Positions 30,759 to 36,304 of a stretch of 36,304 bases of DNA are shown in pieces (positions within the stretch are counted from its first letter, which is position 1; the number at the start of each line of letters is the position of its first letter). Source of the stretch: a virus. Taxonomy: Duplodnaviria; Heunggongvirae; Uroviricota; Caudoviricetes. The DNA is taken from the IMG/VR virus record IMGVR_UViG_2512047041_000001. One strand, written 5' to 3'. The notes beneath the pieces were generated by a model, which saw only the letters and a program-made list of their open reading frames with translations, was not told the DNA's origin and ran no database searches. The position numbers and the translations under genes are program-made.

Positions 30759-30777
30759 ATTTTATAACCCCAATACG

Positions 30778-30803
30778 GGCGTCAGAAATGACGCCTTTTT
30801 TAT
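30778..30803 (+). terminator. Rho-independent terminator after J (GGGCGTCA-loop-TGACGCC then T6)
   Basis: Hairpin and T-tract read directly. Confidence 0.55.
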
Positions 30804-30825: not shown

Positions 30826-31425
30826 ATGCGTAAATTATGTGCTGTTATTCTGTCCGCAGTAGTCTGGCTGGTTGCCGCTGGTACGCCAGCGAGCGCAGCA
30901 GAGCATCAGTCCACACTAAGCGCCGGGTATCTTCAGACCCATACTGATATGCCAGGCAGTGATGACCTGAAGGGCATTAACGTGAAATACCGTTATGAAT
31001 TTACGGACACGCTGGGGCTGGTGACGTCATTCAGTTATGCCAATGCCAAAGATGAGCAAAAAACGCATTACAGCGATACCCGCTGGCATGAAGATTCCGT
31101 GCGTAACCGCTGGTTCAGCATGATGGCGGGGCCATCTGTACGCGTGAATGAATGGTTCAGTGCTTATGCGATGGCAGGTGTGGCTTACAGCCGTGTTTCG
31201 ACGTTCTCCGGGGATTATCTCCGCGTAACTGACAACAAGGGGAAAACGCACGATGTGCTGACCGGAAGTGATGACGATCGCCACAGCAACACGTCTCTGG
31301 CGTGGGGAGCTGGCGTGCAGTTTAACCCGACCGAATCCGTGGCCATTGATATTGCTTATGAAGGCTCCGGCAGTGGCGACTGGCGCACTGACGGTTTCAT
31401 CGTGGGTGTCGGTTATAAGTTCTGA
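30826..31425 (+). CDS. lom: Lom outer-membrane beta-barrel protein (Ail/Lom/OmpX family)
   Basis: 199 aa with signal peptide and C-terminal aromatic residue (GYKF); matches remembered lambda Lom. Confidence 0.85.
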   Translation: MRKLCAVILSAVVWLVAAGTPASAAEHQSTLSAGYLQTHTDMPGSDDLKGINVKYRYEFTDTLGLVTSFSYANAKDEQKTHYSDTRWHEDSVRNRWFSMMAGPSVRVNEWFSAYAMAGVAYSRVSTFSGDYLRVTDNKGKTHDVLTGSDDDRHSNTSLAWGAGVQFNPTESVAIDIAYEGSGSGDWRTDGFIVGVGYKF

Positions 31426-31453
31426 TTAGCCAGGTAACACAGTGTTATGACAG

Positions 31454-31479
31454 CCCGCCGGTTCAGGCGGGCTTTTTTG
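31454..31479 (+). terminator. Rho-independent terminator after lom (GCCCGCC-loop-GGCGGGC then T6)
   Basis: Hairpin and T-tract read directly. Confidence 0.55.
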
Positions 31480-31483
31480 TGGA

Positions 31484-33889
31484 GTGGATATGGCAGCAGT
31501 AAAAATCTCAGGTGTGCTGAAAGATGGTGCGGGAAAACCAATACAGAACTGCACTATTCAACTGAAGGCAAAGCGTAACAGCACCACGGTACTGGTGAAC
31601 ACGGTGGCCTCTGAAAATCCGGATGAAGCCGGGCGTTACAGCATGGATGTTGAGTATGGCCAGTACAGCGTTATCCTGCTTGTTGAAGGTTTTCCGCCTT
31701 CACATGCCGGAACCATTACCGTCTATGAAGGTTCCAGACCAGGTACGCTGAATGATTTTCTCGGTGCCATGACGGAAGATGATGTCATGCCGGAGGCATT
31801 GCGTCGTTTTGAGGAAATGGTGGAAGAAGCGGCACGCAACGCCGAAGCCGCCTCTCAGAGCGCAGCGGCGGCAAAGAAATCCGAAACTGCAGCGGCATCA
31901 TCGAAGAACGCGGCGAAAACCTCAGAAACGAATGCAGCTAATAGTGCACAGGCGGCAGCGACCTCACAGACTGCATCAGAAAACTCCGCGACAGCAGCCA
32001 AAAAATCAGAAACCAACGCGAAAAATAGCGAGACAGCCGCAAAGACGAGCGAAACCAACGCAAAGTCCAGCCAGACGGCAGCGAAGACCAGCGAAACGAA
32101 TGCCAAAGCCAGTGAAACTGCGGCAAAAAACAGCCAGGTTGCAGCAGCCCAAAGCGAGAGCGCGGCAGCCGGTTCTGCGACTTCAGCAACTGGATCAGCA
32201 ACTGCTGCGGCTAACAGCCAGAAAGCTGCGAAGACGAGTGAAACTAACGCAAAGTCCAGCCAGACGGCAGCGAAGACCAGCGAAACGAATGCCAAAGCCA
32301 GTGAAACTGCGGCGAAAAACAGTCAGGATGCAGCAGCCCAAAGCGAGAGTGCCGCAGCTGGTTCTGCAAGTGCGGCGGCTTCTTCTGCCTCTGCATCAGC
32401 CAACAGTCAAAAAGCTGCAAAAACCAGTGAAACCAACGCAAAGGCGAGCGAGACTGCGGCGGCTAACTCAGCGAAAGCATCGGCAGCAAGCCAGACGGCT
32501 GCAAAAGCAAGTGAAGACGCAGCCAGAGAGTATGCAAGCCAGGCTGCGGAGCCGTATAAACAAGTTTTGCAGCCGCTTCCCGATGTGTGGATACCGTTTA
32601 ACGATTCACTGGATATGATTACGGGCTTTTCGCCGTCATATAAAAAGATTGTTATTGGTGATGATGAAATAACGATGCCTGGCGATAAGGTTGTAAAGTT
32701 TAAACGCGCATCAACTGCCACATATATCAATAAATCAGGCGTATTTAGTGTTGCTAAAATTGATGAGCCACGATTTGAAAAAGAAGGTTTATTGATTGAA
32801 GGACAGCGCACTAACTATTTTGTTAAATCCAATATCCCCGCTGAATGGACGAGTACCAGCAATATCGATAAAACTAATAATGGTGTTGATGAATTTGGTT
32901 TTTCATATGCCAAAATGCGAACAAAAGATAATATGACAGGACAATCATCTGCACTTAGTCTGCATACATGCAGTGCATCCCGGGGGATTGATGTTAGTGG
33001 CGATAATAAGTATTGCACTGTTTCATGCAGGGTTAAAGCTCCTGATGGTCTTCGTTGTCGTTTGCGTTTTGAAAAATACGATGGGTCGGTTTATACATTT
33101 TTAGGAGATGCTTATTTAACTTTCGGAACTCTGATAATAGAAAAAACTGGCGGAGCAGCCAATAGAATAGCAGCTACTGCAACTAAAGATCCGGTTACAG
33201 GGTGGATTTTCTATGAGGCAACTATAGAAGCTGTTGAAGGTGAAACCTTAATTGGCGCAATGATTCAGTATGCGCCGAAAAAAGGTGGTGTAACTGAAGC
33301 GGGAGATTATATTTACCTTGCAACACCACAATTTGAAAACGGCGGATGTGCTTCATCTTTTGTTATTACGACAACTGTACCCGCAACCCGCTCCAGTGAT
33401 ATGGTGACGATCCCAACTGAAAATAATATCTATAATAGACCGCTTACGTGCCTGGTCGAGGTTAATAGAAATTGGGGCGATATTCCTCCTAATGTAGCAC
33501 CGCGTATTTTTGATTTTTCTGGTGTGCCACCTATTGAGTCAATTACATACGCTTTTAACACAACTGAGAAATATTACGGTCAGCTTTATATGCAAACTTA
33601 TAAAGCGTCGACAAGTACTTACGTTTCTAGTGTGTTTGCTGGTCGAACTGATGTTCGAAAATTCATTGGTGGTTTTAATATTTATTCTGATGGTACTAAA
33701 CGAGTAGTTTCTAACGGTGAGGCTACTAAAACCATGAAAACGGAGTGGACGGGCGTAAAAACACGGACCTTTATTCGAATTGGAGGTCAAGCCACATCGG
33801 GAACTCGTCATCTATTCGGCCATTTGAGAAATCTTCGTCTCTGGCATAAAGAATTAACTGATGCGCAAATGGGGGAGAGTATTAAATGA
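31484..33889 (+). CDS. stf: Side tail fibre Stf, mosaic: lambda-Stf-like N-terminus, tandem fibre repeats, and a low-GC C-terminal domain with LamG-like signature
   Basis: N-terminus MAAVKISGVLKDGAGKPIQNCTIQLKA as in lambda Stf; repeated AAKTSETNAK units; C-terminal GHLRNLRLWHKELTDAQM resembles the LamG-type motif. Confidence 0.8.
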   Translation: MDMAAVKISGVLKDGAGKPIQNCTIQLKAKRNSTTVLVNTVASENPDEAGRYSMDVEYGQYSVILLVEGFPPSHAGTITVYEGSRPGTLNDFLGAMTEDDVMPEALRRFEEMVEEAARNAEAASQSAAAAKKSETAAASSKNAAKTSETNAANSAQAAATSQTASENSATAAKKSETNAKNSETAAKTSETNAKSSQTAAKTSETNAKASETAAKNSQVAAAQSESAAAGSATSATGSATAAANSQKAAKTSETNAKSSQTAAKTSETNAKASETAAKNSQDAAAQSESAAAGSASAAASSASASANSQKAAKTSETNAKASETAAANSAKASAASQTAAKASEDAAREYASQAAEPYKQVLQPLPDVWIPFNDSLDMITGFSPSYKKIVIGDDEITMPGDKVVKFKRASTATYINKSGVFSVAKIDEPRFEKEGLLIEGQRTNYFVKSNIPAEWTSTSNIDKTNNGVDEFGFSYAKMRTKDNMTGQSSALSLHTCSASRGIDVSGDNKYCTVSCRVKAPDGLRCRLRFEKYDGSVYTFLGDAYLTFGTLIIEKTGGAANRIAATATKDPVTGWIFYEATIEAVEGETLIGAMIQYAPKKGGVTEAGDYIYLATPQFENGGCASSFVITTTVPATRSSDMVTIPTENNIYNRPLTCLVEVNRNWGDIPPNVAPRIFDFSGVPPIESITYAFNTTEKYYGQLYMQTYKASTSTYVSSVFAGRTDVRKFIGGFNIYSDGTKRVVSNGEATKTMKTEWTGVKTRTFIRIGGQATSGTRHLFGHLRNLRLWHKELTDAQMGESIK
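31990..32520 (+). repeat. Tandem direct repeats inside stf (about 180-bp units, with about 42-bp sub-repeats encoding ...AAKTSETNAKxSxT...)
   Basis: Near-identical segments around 32033-32140 and 32222-32330 read directly. Confidence 0.8.
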
Positions 33890-34167
33890 AAGATTTAACG
33901 CTCAAATTTGCAGACAGGGCCGACTTTTCGGCCTTTATGGAGAGTATTGGCTATTATGATGACGAGTCGATGCAGGATGATATTCTTATTGACGTGATAG
34001 GTAACGTGTACAAAGAAACCGGAGAACTGACTGAAGATGGCGAACCGGTATGTGTTAAGGAGGACGGATATTTTGTAAACGTGCGCATCATTAATGATGC
34101 AAAAAAATCGTCAATATTCGATAAATACGCGATTGTTGTTGAGCATCAACTTCGTGGCTGGATGTGA
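33886..34167 (+). CDS. Hypothetical acidic protein (93 aa), translationally coupled to stf
   Basis: ATGA overlap with the stf stop; low-GC; no recognisable family. Confidence 0.5.
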   Translation: MKDLTLKFADRADFSAFMESIGYYDDESMQDDILIDVIGNVYKETGELTEDGEPVCVKEDGYFVNVRIINDAKKSSIFDKYAIVVEHQLRGWM

Positions 34168-34176
34168 GGGAGACAA

Positions 34177-34881
34177 ATGGCTACATCGACAGTAATTCCA
34201 GGAGACATCACCACGTTAAAGGGAGATGTCAGTAAAGCCAAGGAAGATATTTCCTCAATTAACGGAAAAGTATCAACGCTTCAGACTGATATGACCAGTG
34301 CAAAGCAGGATATCAGCACCAGATACACAAAAACTGAAGTTGATAATAAGCTGAAAAACAAAGTGGAAGTGAACGATCTGGAAAGTGGTCGTTATGGTGG
34401 AGATTTTTACCCGCTGACTGGTCGTGAAGCGTTTTATTTGTGGGGATTGGGCACGACTACAGCGGCGGCAAACCTTTATCTTAATCCTGACCCCGCAATT
34501 TCGTCTGTACTGCGGTCCACATCGTCTATCCGCTATAAACATTCAGTAGAGACGATAGATTCGGAGCACGCCGATCTCATTTTCAGGATGCGCCCTGTGT
34601 GGTACAGGTCGCAATGCGAAAATGACAGGCGCGATTGGGGATTCTATGGATTGATTGCCGAGGAAGTAGGAGAAATTGCCCCTCAGTTTGTTCACTGGCG
34701 ACCAGCTAACGAGAATGATGCTCCTGAAGCTATTTCCAGCAATGGCCTTGTTGCCGAAGGTGTAATGTACGAACGTCTGGTTGTTCCACTGATTCACCAT
34801 ATCCAGAAACTGACTGAAAGAGTTGATGAACTTGAGTCAGAATTAAAGTTGTTATCAACTTCCCGAAGCGATATCGGATAA
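34177..34881 (+). CDS. Tail-fibre-like protein: coiled-coil N-terminus plus C-terminal intramolecular chaperone (peptidase S74-like) domain
   Basis: RBS GAGGGAG upstream; C-terminal segment SSIRYKHSVETID ... WGFYGLIAEEVGEIAPQFV ... VMYERLVVPLIHHIQKLTERVDELE fits the S74 chaperone pattern (Ser-x4-Lys, GLIAQEV-like core). Confidence 0.55.
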   Translation: MATSTVIPGDITTLKGDVSKAKEDISSINGKVSTLQTDMTSAKQDISTRYTKTEVDNKLKNKVEVNDLESGRYGGDFYPLTGREAFYLWGLGTTTAAANLYLNPDPAISSVLRSTSSIRYKHSVETIDSEHADLIFRMRPVWYRSQCENDRRDWGFYGLIAEEVGEIAPQFVHWRPANENDAPEAISSNGLVAEGVMYERLVVPLIHHIQKLTERVDELESELKLLSTSRSDIG

Positions 34882-34891
34882 AGGAGGAGTA

Positions 34892-35185
34892 ATGGATATA
34901 ACACCTTTCCTTCATGCACTTTGTGCTGTGGCTGCGCAGGTACTGGTTGGTCTTTTTACCGGAAACTGGGCTTACGGGGCGATAGCCGGTTGTACGTTCT
35001 TCATTGCGCGTGAACATACCCAGGCAGAATATCGCTGGATTGAAATGTTCGGGCATGGCAAGCGAATGAATATGCCGTGGTGGGGCGGTTTTGATCCGCG
35101 CGCGTGGGATGTGGCAAGTCTGATGGATTTTGCTGTGCCGGTGGTGGCGTGTCTGCTGGTCTGGCTGTTGGTTAATCGTGGGTGA
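34892..35185 (+). CDS. Small integral membrane protein (97 aa, 2-3 predicted transmembrane segments), unknown function
   Basis: RBS AAGGAGG upstream; hydrophobic segments LHALCAVAAQVLVGLF, AIAGCTFFIA, FAVPVVACLLVWLLV. Confidence 0.5.
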   Translation: MDITPFLHALCAVAAQVLVGLFTGNWAYGAIAGCTFFIAREHTQAEYRWIEMFGHGKRMNMPWWGGFDPRAWDVASLMDFAVPVVACLLVWLLVNRG

Positions 35186-35198
35186 AAAAAGGTGAGCT

Positions 35199-35323
35199 GT
35201 ATATGCAACGGAGGAAGAAACCTCGTTGCGGGAAGCCTGGAAGAAGTATCGGGTGTTGCTGAACCGTGTTGATACATCAACTGCACCTGATATTGAGTGG
35301 CCTACGAACCCTGTCAGGGAGTA
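35199..35323 (+). pseudogene. tfa: 3' remnant of a tail fibre assembly gene (tfa): the last ~40 codons only
   Basis: Translation ...[38 protein letters not shown] matches the conserved Tfa C-terminus; in-frame stop directly upstream. Confidence 0.7.
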
Positions 35324-35378
35324 ATCATTGGGATTATGCCGCAGCACGTCTTAAGCAAGAACGTGCTGCGGTTGGATG

Positions 35379-36047
35379 CTATTTTTTCCCTGAAGCGGAA
35401 AACATTACTACAGTACCTTGAACCTTGGTTTTAACATTCTCGAAATGCTCTGAGAGTATATGTGTTAAGCCTTCTTCGGAATCTTTTGTGTTTGAAAAGA
35501 TGCCTTTCTGATTGTAAATGCGCATCAGTTTTTGACCGAAGCTATTGTGCACAACTCCATCGCCAAGAATTGTGGCTCCGTATAGAGTTCCATCGTCAGT
35601 TAAGGCCTGCGCCGCATTGCGTATTACACAGCTTTTTGTAGATATATTTCCAGGCAGGCAGTGAAGAAGGTAAAACATGGAAATGGAATCAAATTGACCA
35701 TGTAACGCCGCGGGATAAGGTTCAAAAACATCATGGCTAATTTTATGTTTAATTTTTGATTCCCCAGCCCTTGTAGATGCCGCGTTCAGGCTAGCTTCGT
35801 TCAAATCCATTAAAGATATCAGACTACTCTCAGGTACGTGAGTAAGGTAAAACCCAGTTCCAACACCAATATCCAGATGGTTGTTACCTAAATGTTCCAG
35901 AAAGTGTGGAAGAAGGTGTTCCTTTGTAGGACATCCCCATGCAAGCCGATTTGATACTCCCAAAACCCACCAGTCATAAAGCTTTAGGGTAAGTGGTGTG
36001 TAAATTTTAGCCCCATCATCTGTGTTTTTTTTCATTAATTTCACCAT
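35379..36047 (-). CDS. ybcY: Class I SAM-dependent methyltransferase (YbcY-like), low-GC
   Basis: Motif I LDIGVGTGFY, acidic beta-2 end (LMDLN), motif FDSISMFYLLHCLPG; no DPPY/NPPY DNA-methyltransferase motif; flanked by tfa fragments as remembered for DLP12. Confidence 0.65.
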   Translation of the reverse strand: MVKLMKKNTDDGAKIYTPLTLKLYDWWVLGVSNRLAWGCPTKEHLLPHFLEHLGNNHLDIGVGTGFYLTHVPESSLISLMDLNEASLNAASTRAGESKIKHKISHDVFEPYPAALHGQFDSISMFYLLHCLPGNISTKSCVIRNAAQALTDDGTLYGATILGDGVVHNSFGQKLMRIYNQKGIFSNTKDSEEGLTHILSEHFENVKTKVQGTVVMFSASGKK

Positions 36048-36103
36048 GTTATAGTTTTATTTGTGAATTAAATCAATTATGGCGATGAATTACAAGGGGT
36101 TAA

Positions 36104-36304
36104 ATGCTGCCGCAGCATAGCGATATTGAAATAGCCTGGTATGCTTCGATACAGCAGGAGCCGAATGGCTGGAAGACCGTCACCACACAGTTCTACATCC
36201 AGGAATTCAGTGAGTATATTGCGCCACTGCAGGATGCTGGGAAATCGCAACGGAGGAAGAAAGATCGTTGCTGGAGGCATGGAATAAATATCGGGTATTG
36301 TTGA
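36104..36304 (+). pseudogene. tfa: 5'-truncated, frameshifted tail fibre assembly gene fragment (tfa-like), running to the window edge
   Basis: HSDIEIAWYASIQQEPNGWKTVTTQFYIQEFSEYIAPLQDA matches Tfa family proteins; the conserved continuation EIATEEERSLLEAWNKYRVLL is in a different frame from about 36245; no Tfa N-terminus upstream. Confidence 0.65.

Follow-up and report, generated by a model that had tools for sequence, protein, structure and literature searches.

A mosaic side tail fibre of a lambdoid prophage with a predicted lectin-like head and a downstream cassette of small genes

Side and lateral tail fibres decide which bacterial strains a phage can approach, and tail fibres are the parts that engineers swap in order to retarget lambda-based delivery particles. 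The present study deals with such a fibre, the product of a side tail fibre gene (stf), and with the genes immediately following it on a stretch of 36,304 nucleotides from a member of the Caudoviricetes (IMG/VR record IMGVR_UViG_2512047041_000001), referred to as the window and providing all position numbers given below. Among the closest described systems, two-gene and branched lateral fibres are known from T5-like phages (PMC4728585, PMC10713586), and the head spike fibre GhsB (Rcc01080) of the Rhodobacter capsulatus gene transfer agent (RcGTA) is a single chain with an Ile/Leu-Gly repeat at its N-terminus, by which it is attached to the pentameric base of the capsid spike (PMC7296036). Rcc01080 is predicted to be two-lobed, beta-rich and lectin-like, and the tagged protein binds to capsulated cells and largely not to capsule-less mutants (PMC10218006). 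In phage Sf11, an appendage without known function is located on the distal tail protein (PMC12724387).

Set beside these systems, stf of the window is a well-supported, ordinary mosaic fibre gene, i.e., a common modular prophage gene. It probably encodes a chimeric side fibre, the lectin-like head of which was imported as a cassette from a lineage of lower G+C content (GC), with the small protein ORF93 as a partner of the head and the short second fibre ORF234 as an add-on. The lambda-type N-terminal domain would anchor this fibre to the tail and a heptad-repeat shaft of about 240 residues would extend it outward, until at about residues 356-371 the lambda-type sequence gives way to a head of about 440 residues that is predicted to consist of two jelly rolls of the concanavalin A/laminin G (ConA/LamG) type. 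The head is most likely a lectin-like module without enzymatic activity that binds a polysaccharide of the cell surface (O-antigen or capsule), and it would provide a reversible first contact with the host, after which the central fibre J would find the terminal receptor. It may have entered the lambdoid phages by recombination, in one cassette with the genes that follow it, and may thereby have displaced the lambda tip together with Tfa.

Anchor, shaft and module junction of Stf

The reading frame of stf is open over 801 codons without interruption (31484-33889, plus strand, in the list of open reading frames, ORFs). The GTG at 31484 sits within the Shine-Dalgarno (SD) sequence GGAG (31481-31484) and translation from the ATG at 31490 yields MAAVKISG..., in agreement with the N-terminus of lambda Stf; the coding sequence therefore probably begins at 31490 (Table 1). 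An original prediction made from the nucleotide sequence had described the first ~110 residues and the repeat region as lambda Stf-like. This is borne out by a match of residues 5-134 to Pfam family PF08400 (phage_tail_N; 224.2 bits vs. a cut-off of 26.6, E = 6e-67), which places the N-terminus in the lambda Stf family, and by 61% identity of residues 5-275 to lambda orf-401, peaking in the first ~110 residues. The shaft that follows has a strict period of seven residues, with identities of about 0.5 at lags of 7, 14, 21 and 28 residues (0.50 at lag 7) vs. a background of about 0.14, a pattern that suggests a coiled coil. Periods of 21, 42 and 189 nt were found by Tandem Repeats Finder (TRF), and a tandem duplication at 32035-32461 (plus strand) has a unit of 189 nt (63 residues, nine heptads) in 2.3 copies of 84% identity. 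Such a duplication accounts for length polymorphism among Stf homologues, which span at least 736-801 amino acids (aa), and shaft length accordingly appears to vary through gain and loss of repeats. Within the heptad-repeat region, a 146-codon ORF is present on the opposite strand (31855-32295, minus strand; RefSeq WP_011076512.1). Lambda orf206b is an analogous antisense ORF in the same place, and the ORF of the window is likely a by-product of repeat composition and not a gene.

The C-terminal part of Stf had furthermore been described as AT-richer and as a horizontally swapped tip, and both statements hold. In a sliding GC profile the drop is evident, and a two-segment likelihood scan of stf placed the change point at 32597 (residue 371), with a GC of 0.542 to its left and 0.398 to its right and values of 0.488 vs. 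0.278 at third codon positions (GC3). The gain in log-likelihood was 25.1, compared to a maximum of 7.4 in 200 permutations, and the low GC extends into the two ORFs after stf (0.41 and 0.45). Similarity to the fibres of phage 21, the T5-like phage Stokescottia and the Dhillonvirus KarlBarth sets in at 32547-32570, as given by the starts of blastn high-scoring segment pairs (HSPs; loci L003, L004, L005), i.e., 30-50 nt upstream of the change point, and the head shows no similarity to the lambda tip encoded by orf-314 (best E 8.7). In T5-like (0.39-0.41), Dhillonvirus (0.54) and rV5-like (0.465) phages, the GC of the head equals that of the locus, whereas in the window and in phage 21 it lies 0.12-0.14 under that of the shaft; the GC3 of the window head (0.28) is like that of the T5-like copies (0.25-0.30). 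These values would fit a fairly recent import into lambdoid phages from a low-GC lineage of T5-like composition, with the transfer having proceeded in this direction.

Table 1. Features of the stf locus, with positions in the window and the evidence for each
Feature	Position	Strand	Basis
stf, side tail fibre gene (probable start at ATG 31490)	31490..33889	+	ORF list; SD GGAG; PHROG 1419 match end to end
Lambda-type N-terminal anchor domain, residues 5-134, putative tail attachment	31496..31885	+	Pfam PF08400 phage_tail_N
Ala/Ser/Thr/Lys/Glu heptad-repeat shaft, residues 115-352	31826..32539	+	Autocorrelation; TRF
Module junction	32547..32597	+	blastn HSP starts; change-point analysis
Conserved neck and first head strands, residues 361-445 (PLPDVWIPFNDSLDM...RASTATYINKSG...EPRFE...GLLIEGQRTNY)	32564..32817	+	Conservation profile; blastn
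Head domain 1, jelly roll of the gene transfer agent head-spike-fibre type, residues 437-637	32792..33394	+	NCBIfam NF048003; family profile vs. PDB
Variable head core, exchangeable cassette	32818..33770	+	blastn; allele comparison
Head domain 2, LamG/ConA-like jelly roll, ~residues 650-801, ending in GHLRNLRLWHKELTDAQM	33431..33886	+	Laminin_G_3 (partial); 4qvs_A; Foldseek
Conserved linker block: last ~40 residues of Stf, whole ORF93, first ~15 residues of ORF234	33771..34220	+	blastn
ORF93, small acidic partner of the head	33886..34167	+	ATG overlaps stf stop (ATGA); SD-like GGGGGAGAG upstream
ORF234, short second fibre	34177..34881	+	Pfam PF13884; PDB matches; shared N-terminal peptide
ORF97, small membrane protein closing the lambdoid cassette	34892..35185	+	Phage 21 gp24; PHROG 1443
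tfa scar, last 39 codons	35205..35321	+	87% identity to lambda Tfa residues 156-194; RefSeq: incomplete tail fiber assembly protein

Fold of the head and its probable ligand

Conclusions on the fold of the head rest on a match to NCBIfam, on a family profile of 51 sequences and on a structure model. Domain 1 matches NF048003, the gene transfer agent (GTA) head spike fibre domain, with 54.3 bits (cut-off 36), which is the reason why RefSeq names an stf fragment 'phage head spike fiber domain-containing protein'; NCBI thus already names the protein after this domain. When the family profile was run against PDB sequences, domain 1 retrieved residues 45-280 of RcGTA Rcc01080 (6tb9_F3) with an E value of 5.4e-42, the C-terminal appendage of Sf11 gp17 with 6e-19 as well as E217 gp45 and Pa193 gp46 with 5e-16. 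By the NCBIfam cut-off and by homology to Rcc01080 it therefore belongs to the GTA head-spike fibre domains. The Ile/Leu-Gly repeat characteristic of the GTA virion component does not precede the module in Stf, where the tail anchor of the lambda type and the heptad shaft come first and the module is fused behind them. Domain 2 matched 4qvs_A (E = 1.5e-6) and, weakly, pentraxins and CBM40. Domain boundaries were derived from the ranges of these profile matches and not from model coordinates. Searches of Pfam and PDB with the head as a single sequence yielded sub-threshold matches only (Laminin_G_3, 18.7 bits; Rcc01080, E = 0.15). The C-terminal end GHLRNLRLWHKELTDAQM covers the last 63 of the 151 positions of Pfam Laminin_G_3 (PF13385) at 18.7-20.3 bits, under the cut-off of 27.6 by which Pfam would assign it to the ConA-like superfamily, and a LamG signature is thus suggestive when judged by sequence alone.

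An exhaustive search of 1.84 billion representatives returned 1701 relatives of the head, many of them across the whole query of 451 residues. The AlphaFold2 model, a monomer prediction computed from an alignment with 50 relatives, is confidently all-beta (mean predicted local distance difference test, pLDDT, 91.3; predicted template modelling score, pTM, 0.88) and displays the curved two-sheet jelly-roll fold of ConA-like proteins. Structurally, the model comes closest to carbohydrate-binding modules, pentraxins, laminin LG domains and the binding domains of botulinum toxins, all of which are ConA-like jelly rolls. Foldseek aligned the head over 362-464 columns with tandem laminin LG4-5 pairs and also with the E217 and Pa193 baseplate proteins, which points to two jelly rolls in tandem. 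At the level of profile matching and structure prediction, a lectin-like fold is thus confirmed. Of the glycan-binding tip with a terminal LamG/ConA motif that had originally been predicted, the fold stands and extends over ~440 residues, while the motif remains below threshold as a sequence signature and the module resolves into two domains, only the second of which carries the LamG-like terminal motif.

Based on this fold and on the homology to the capsule-binding RcGTA fibre, glycan binding by the head is suggested. That the head could instead be an enzyme, i.e., a ConA-fold glycanase or lyase degrading O-antigen or capsule in the manner of a tailspike, was given low weight and appears very improbable: its top matches are non-catalytic modules, no enzyme family was matched in Pfam, NCBIfam or PDB profile searches, no conserved acidic catalytic pair was identifiable, and the invariant residues R80, G85, E89, N94, Q266, E268 and S275 (numbering of the modelled segment) are located in conserved blocks flanking the variable core.

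A protein receptor such as an outer membrane porin deserves somewhat more attention. Some jelly rolls of the LamG and botulinum toxin types bind proteins, and one and the same head allele is found in hosts that presumably differ in serotype. In addition, Stf of Ur-lambda has been reported to use OmpC (PMC11338833). On the other hand, the head is unlike the lambda tip, by fold it is closest to carbohydrate-binding modules and lectins, its only characterised homologue is capsule-dependent, and the lateral fibres of the phage groups that share the head have been assigned to O-antigen recognition (PMC8594841, PMC11990801), all of which renders a protein receptor distinctly unlikely. By analogy, the homology to Rcc01080 (E = 5e-42) with the capsule-dependent binding of that protein, together with the portability of the head across phage groups with O-antigen-assigned lateral fibres, would argue for a binder of surface polysaccharide.

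Exchangeable cassettes, ORF93 and the second fibre

Breakpoints within the locus were derived from a blastn comparison of the window with 85 related loci. The neck, the GC of which is already low, is 91-98% identical in many loci up to exactly position 32817, after which the sequences diverge, and would thus act as the upstream recombination linker. Alleles of the head core that follows share ~57-78% protein identity between otherwise near-identical prophages, and no other segment varies as much between prophages with more than 90% identity on both flanks of the core, as would be expected of a host-range determinant. Sub-breakpoints inside the core at ~33196, ~33395 and 33514 indicate that single domains are exchangeable. 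The downstream linker block retains ~87% nucleotide identity in loci with a diverged head core and is followed by a variable second-fibre body (34221-34890) and by the conserved ORF97. Across the family, conservation peaks in the neck (residues 361-450), in an inter-domain segment (611-640) and in the C-terminal strand (771-800), while the bodies of the domains are variable. Head alleles and second-fibre alleles were found in all combinations, and the conserved linkers around the two variable cassettes, head core and second-fibre body, would permit their independent swapping by homologous recombination.

The head is followed by a homologue of ORF93 in each of the 80 viral loci as well as in all other loci examined, with the start of the small gene overlapping the stop of the head gene at those loci where it is annotated. 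Median identity amounts to ~90% regardless of the head allele. Phage 21, locus L089, the rV5-like phage naswa and a Buttiauxella prophage possess the head and ORF93 and no second fibre, which assigns ORF93 to the head and not to the second fibre. It exhibits neither sequence nor fold similarity to known fibre chaperones of the lambda Tfa/Caudo_TAP type. ORF93, which is translationally coupled to stf, would most likely be a dedicated partner of the head, either an assembly factor or a small structural clip. Coupling of the tip to an unusual downstream cassette rather than to a Tfa chaperone had been part of the original prediction; the coupling is evident from the constant presence of the small ORF and a 39-residue scar is all that is left of Tfa, but parts of the segment 32500-35300 match 4810 of 5426 complete Escherichia coli genomes, and the cassette is thus ordinary in this species, not unusual.

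ORF234 begins 9 nt after ORF93 with an SD sequence of its own. It comprises a conserved N-terminal peptide, MATSTVIPGDITTLK, a coiled coil and a C-terminal intramolecular chaperone, the latter recognised as Peptidase_S74 (PF13884; residues 116-172 and beyond, 27.3 bits vs. a cut-off of 22), and aligns in PDB with the L-shaped tail fibre chain 8hqz_d and with the MYRF ICA domain. Together with a putative self-cleavage motif, TSS-IRYK at residues 113-119, which was assigned by eye, this places ORF234 among the fibres with an intramolecular chaperone and a predicted cleavage. A second fibre usually follows the ORF93 homologue, and the conserved peptide is common to otherwise different second fibres, namely those of 346 aa from prophages of E. 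coli and those of 576-580 aa from the T5-like phages Stokescottia and SIA3lw as well as to KarlBarth gp30; Peptidase_S74 is present in all three second-fibre alleles scanned (234, 346 and 576 aa). In SIA3lw virions, both the head-bearing fibre and the S74 protein have been detected by mass spectrometry (PMC12752171). The second fibre of KarlBarth is split into gp30 (98 aa, with the conserved peptide) and the overlapping gp31 (196 aa; locus L005, 5020-5899), which reflects either a frameshift within one gene or a distal fibre made of two parts. ORF234 would be a short trimeric fibre that folds by means of its own self-cleaving chaperone domain, and it probably plugs onto the Stf head via its N-terminal peptide, which would result in a two-tier or branched fibre.

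This arrangement also bears on the notion that the head is mainly a structural hub on which a distal S74-type fibre docks, with ORF93 as the joint and specificity residing mostly in the second fibre. The C-terminal strand of Stf, ORF93 and the peptide of the second fibre are encoded in a single conserved block, as would fit a co-adapted interface, ORF93 stays ~90% identical while head cores diverge, and homologues of domain 1 occur as baseplate proteins (E217, Pa193) or as a distal-tail appendage (Sf11). Moreover, pairs of proximal and distal fibres have been described in T5-like and other phages (PMC4728585, PMC11990801). However, a pure scaffold should be conserved, and the head core is extremely variable and undergoes recombination separately from the second fibre; a second fibre is missing in phage 21, L089, naswa and the Buttiauxella prophage, all of which possess the head and ORF93; the second fibre of the window would retain ~114 residues after cleavage, which leaves little space for a receptor-binding domain; and the RcGTA homologue binds capsule. 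A predominantly structural head is thus unlikely, although the roles as a hub and as a lectin are not mutually exclusive and could coexist.

Returning to the chimeric side fibre with an imported lectin-like head, several observations weigh against it. Binding results within the head family concern Rcc01080 and no member on a tail fibre, and proteins and lipids are also among the ligands of ConA/LamG folds, examples being neurexins and botulinum toxins. The homologues of domain 1 from E217 and Pa193 were assigned to the baseplate on deposition, and the one from Sf11 is appended to the distal tail protein, so that domain 1 is not always a terminal receptor binder. The head-core allele of the window was recovered with a query coverage of 80% or more from 226 of the 5426 complete E. 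coli genomes and is identical in strains CFT073 and IAI39. We take these two strains to differ in O and K types, which argues against a specificity restricted to a single serotype. ORF93 and the head allele do not vary together, which would be unexpected for a chaperone recognising the variable part. Finally, the head was modelled as a monomer, while the shaft is presumably trimeric.

A further-reaching idea, which we put forward tentatively and regard as possible rather than probable, is that ORF93 represents an undescribed, widespread class of fibre accessory proteins that always occurs with GhsB-type heads, in siphoviruses as well as in myoviruses. The C-terminal strand of Stf, ORF93 and the peptide of the S74 fibre could then form a three-part 'plug' joint on which a self-folding trimeric mini-fibre is mounted, which might give rise to a two-tier fibre of two specificities with independently shuffled cassettes.

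In lambdoid loci that reach far enough, the cassette is followed by ORF97 at 92-100% identity. This protein is 97% identical to phage 21 gp24, which is annotated with two transmembrane domains; it was not present in the T5-like and Dhillonvirus loci examined. With a GC of 0.53 it is unlike the preceding cassette, and it may be a candidate moron, e.g., for superinfection exclusion. The tfa scar right after ORF97 confirms that a lambda-type tip and its chaperone were displaced, and a complete lambda Stf-Tfa system, i.e., a tip of the lambda/P2/T4 type together with an intact tfa, is not encoded at the locus. Beyond 36197, a remnant of DinI and another one of tfa, the latter frameshifted, are recorded in RefSeq; the tfa and DinI remnants are scars of successive replacements of tail fibre cassettes.

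Genomic context, distribution and comparison with described fibres

The window corresponds to the lambdoid prophage at the DLP12 site of E. coli IAI39, with 32500-35300 (a query of 2801 bases) being 100% identical to NC_011750.1. Genes are arranged in the order J, lom, stf, three small genes, tfa remnant and, on the minus strand, a methyltransferase. The latter (35379-36047), a class I S-adenosylmethionine (SAM)-dependent enzyme that matches PHROG 2132 over its full length and is YbcY-like according to PhiR49_1, is situated between tfa remnants, and ompT of IAI39 lies a few kb past it, which was read as an insertion site of the DLP12 type. Two GC-rich hairpins followed by T-runs and resembling terminators flank lom (30777-30796 and 31452-31473, plus strand), the second only ~10 nt upstream of the ribosome-binding site of stf; this layout is as expected for a moron that is read through by an antiterminated late transcript.

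In RefSeq (NC_011750.1, 557727-560126), the intact stf gene is broken up into two pseudogene entries, one 'missing C-terminus' and one 'missing N-terminus', which enclose two short 'hypothetical proteins'. Taken at face value, these calls and the location of the prophage at a DLP12-type site beside Tfa and DinI remnants would speak for decaying prophage DNA, the arrangement of which is without current function. Yet the reading frame is intact over its 801 codons, the partner genes are intact and translationally coupled, and the fragments are probably an annotation artefact caused by the low-complexity repeat shaft. The same cassette is present in virulent phages and in PhiR49_1, which was deposited as a complete phage with E. 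coli ECOR13 as its host and shares 96.8% nucleotide identity with the window over 31000-36304 and 99.1% amino acid identity in the Stf head. A literature search for PhiR49_1 and its source study yielded nothing. Its deposition as a complete phage counts toward function of the cassette in a live phage, and decay is extremely improbable. An annotation lesson can be drawn, in that an intact fibre gene had been split into pseudogene fragments.

With regard to phages, tblastn detected the head in 218 records, with a coverage of at least 80% in 206 of them. The carriers comprise lambdoid phages (phage 21, mEp460) as well as Dhillonvirus, Tequintavirus and rV5-like Vequintavirus, so that the comparison of the tip with the fibres of other phages, which had been suggested along with the original prediction, revealed the same head in several groups; it is also found fused to N-termini of the Phage_fiber_2 type. 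A profile search of genome contigs with a narrower alignment returned five loci. Gifsy-1 Stf is of the lambda type and lacks this head family, and the head family was not used in the papers of Eligo on lambda-Stf chimeras. Within an incomplete coverage of the literature, we found no description of the head family as a part of tail fibres, of ORF93 as its partner or of the docking peptide that second fibres have in common. Both among prophages of E. coli and among virulent phages of the T5-like, Dhillonvirus and rV5-like groups, the head family is very common, and its uncharacterised, obligatory 93-aa partner is the most interesting loose end. For the design of chimeric fibres, the natural fusion point at ~residue 356-371, the conserved linkers and the supply of ORF93 rather than Tfa alongside the head should prove useful.

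In comparison with T5-like two-gene lateral fibres, tandem fibre genes, the second of which contains Peptidase_S74, are a common trait, and the first fibres of Stokescottia, SIA3lw and AKFV33 feature the same head family (37-56% identity), the small ORF and the N-terminal peptide of the second fibre. A small ORF of the ORF93 type is not discussed in the papers on T5-like lateral fibres (PMC4728585, PMC10713586). LtfA of DT57C differs in that its own end is an S74 chaperone domain and not a head of the type found in the window. The docking region of DT57C LtfB, which is homologous to phiEco32 gp15, is a different sequence, and the only match in DT57C, to query residues 27-66, falls inside ltfA. 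The locus of the window has tandem fibre genes and a conserved peptide on the second fibre and does not share the docking sequences of DT57C, and a branched fibre of the LtfA/LtfB type would be a candidate arrangement. In Sf11 gp17, E217 gp45 and Pa193 gp46, the same jelly-roll module is located on baseplate or distal-tail proteins and not at the tip of a fibre. RcGTA GhsB is a true sequence homologue of head domain 1; in the window, however, the module terminates a tail fibre shaft and is complemented by a LamG-like second domain with its terminal motif and by ORF93. With lambda, finally, the locus has in common the order J, lom, stf, a homologous N-terminal anchor and the type of Ala/Ser/Thr-rich heptad shaft, whereas from about residue 356 onward Stf of the window is unlike the lambda tip, ends in a predicted jelly-roll head with another partner and retains tfa only as a scar.

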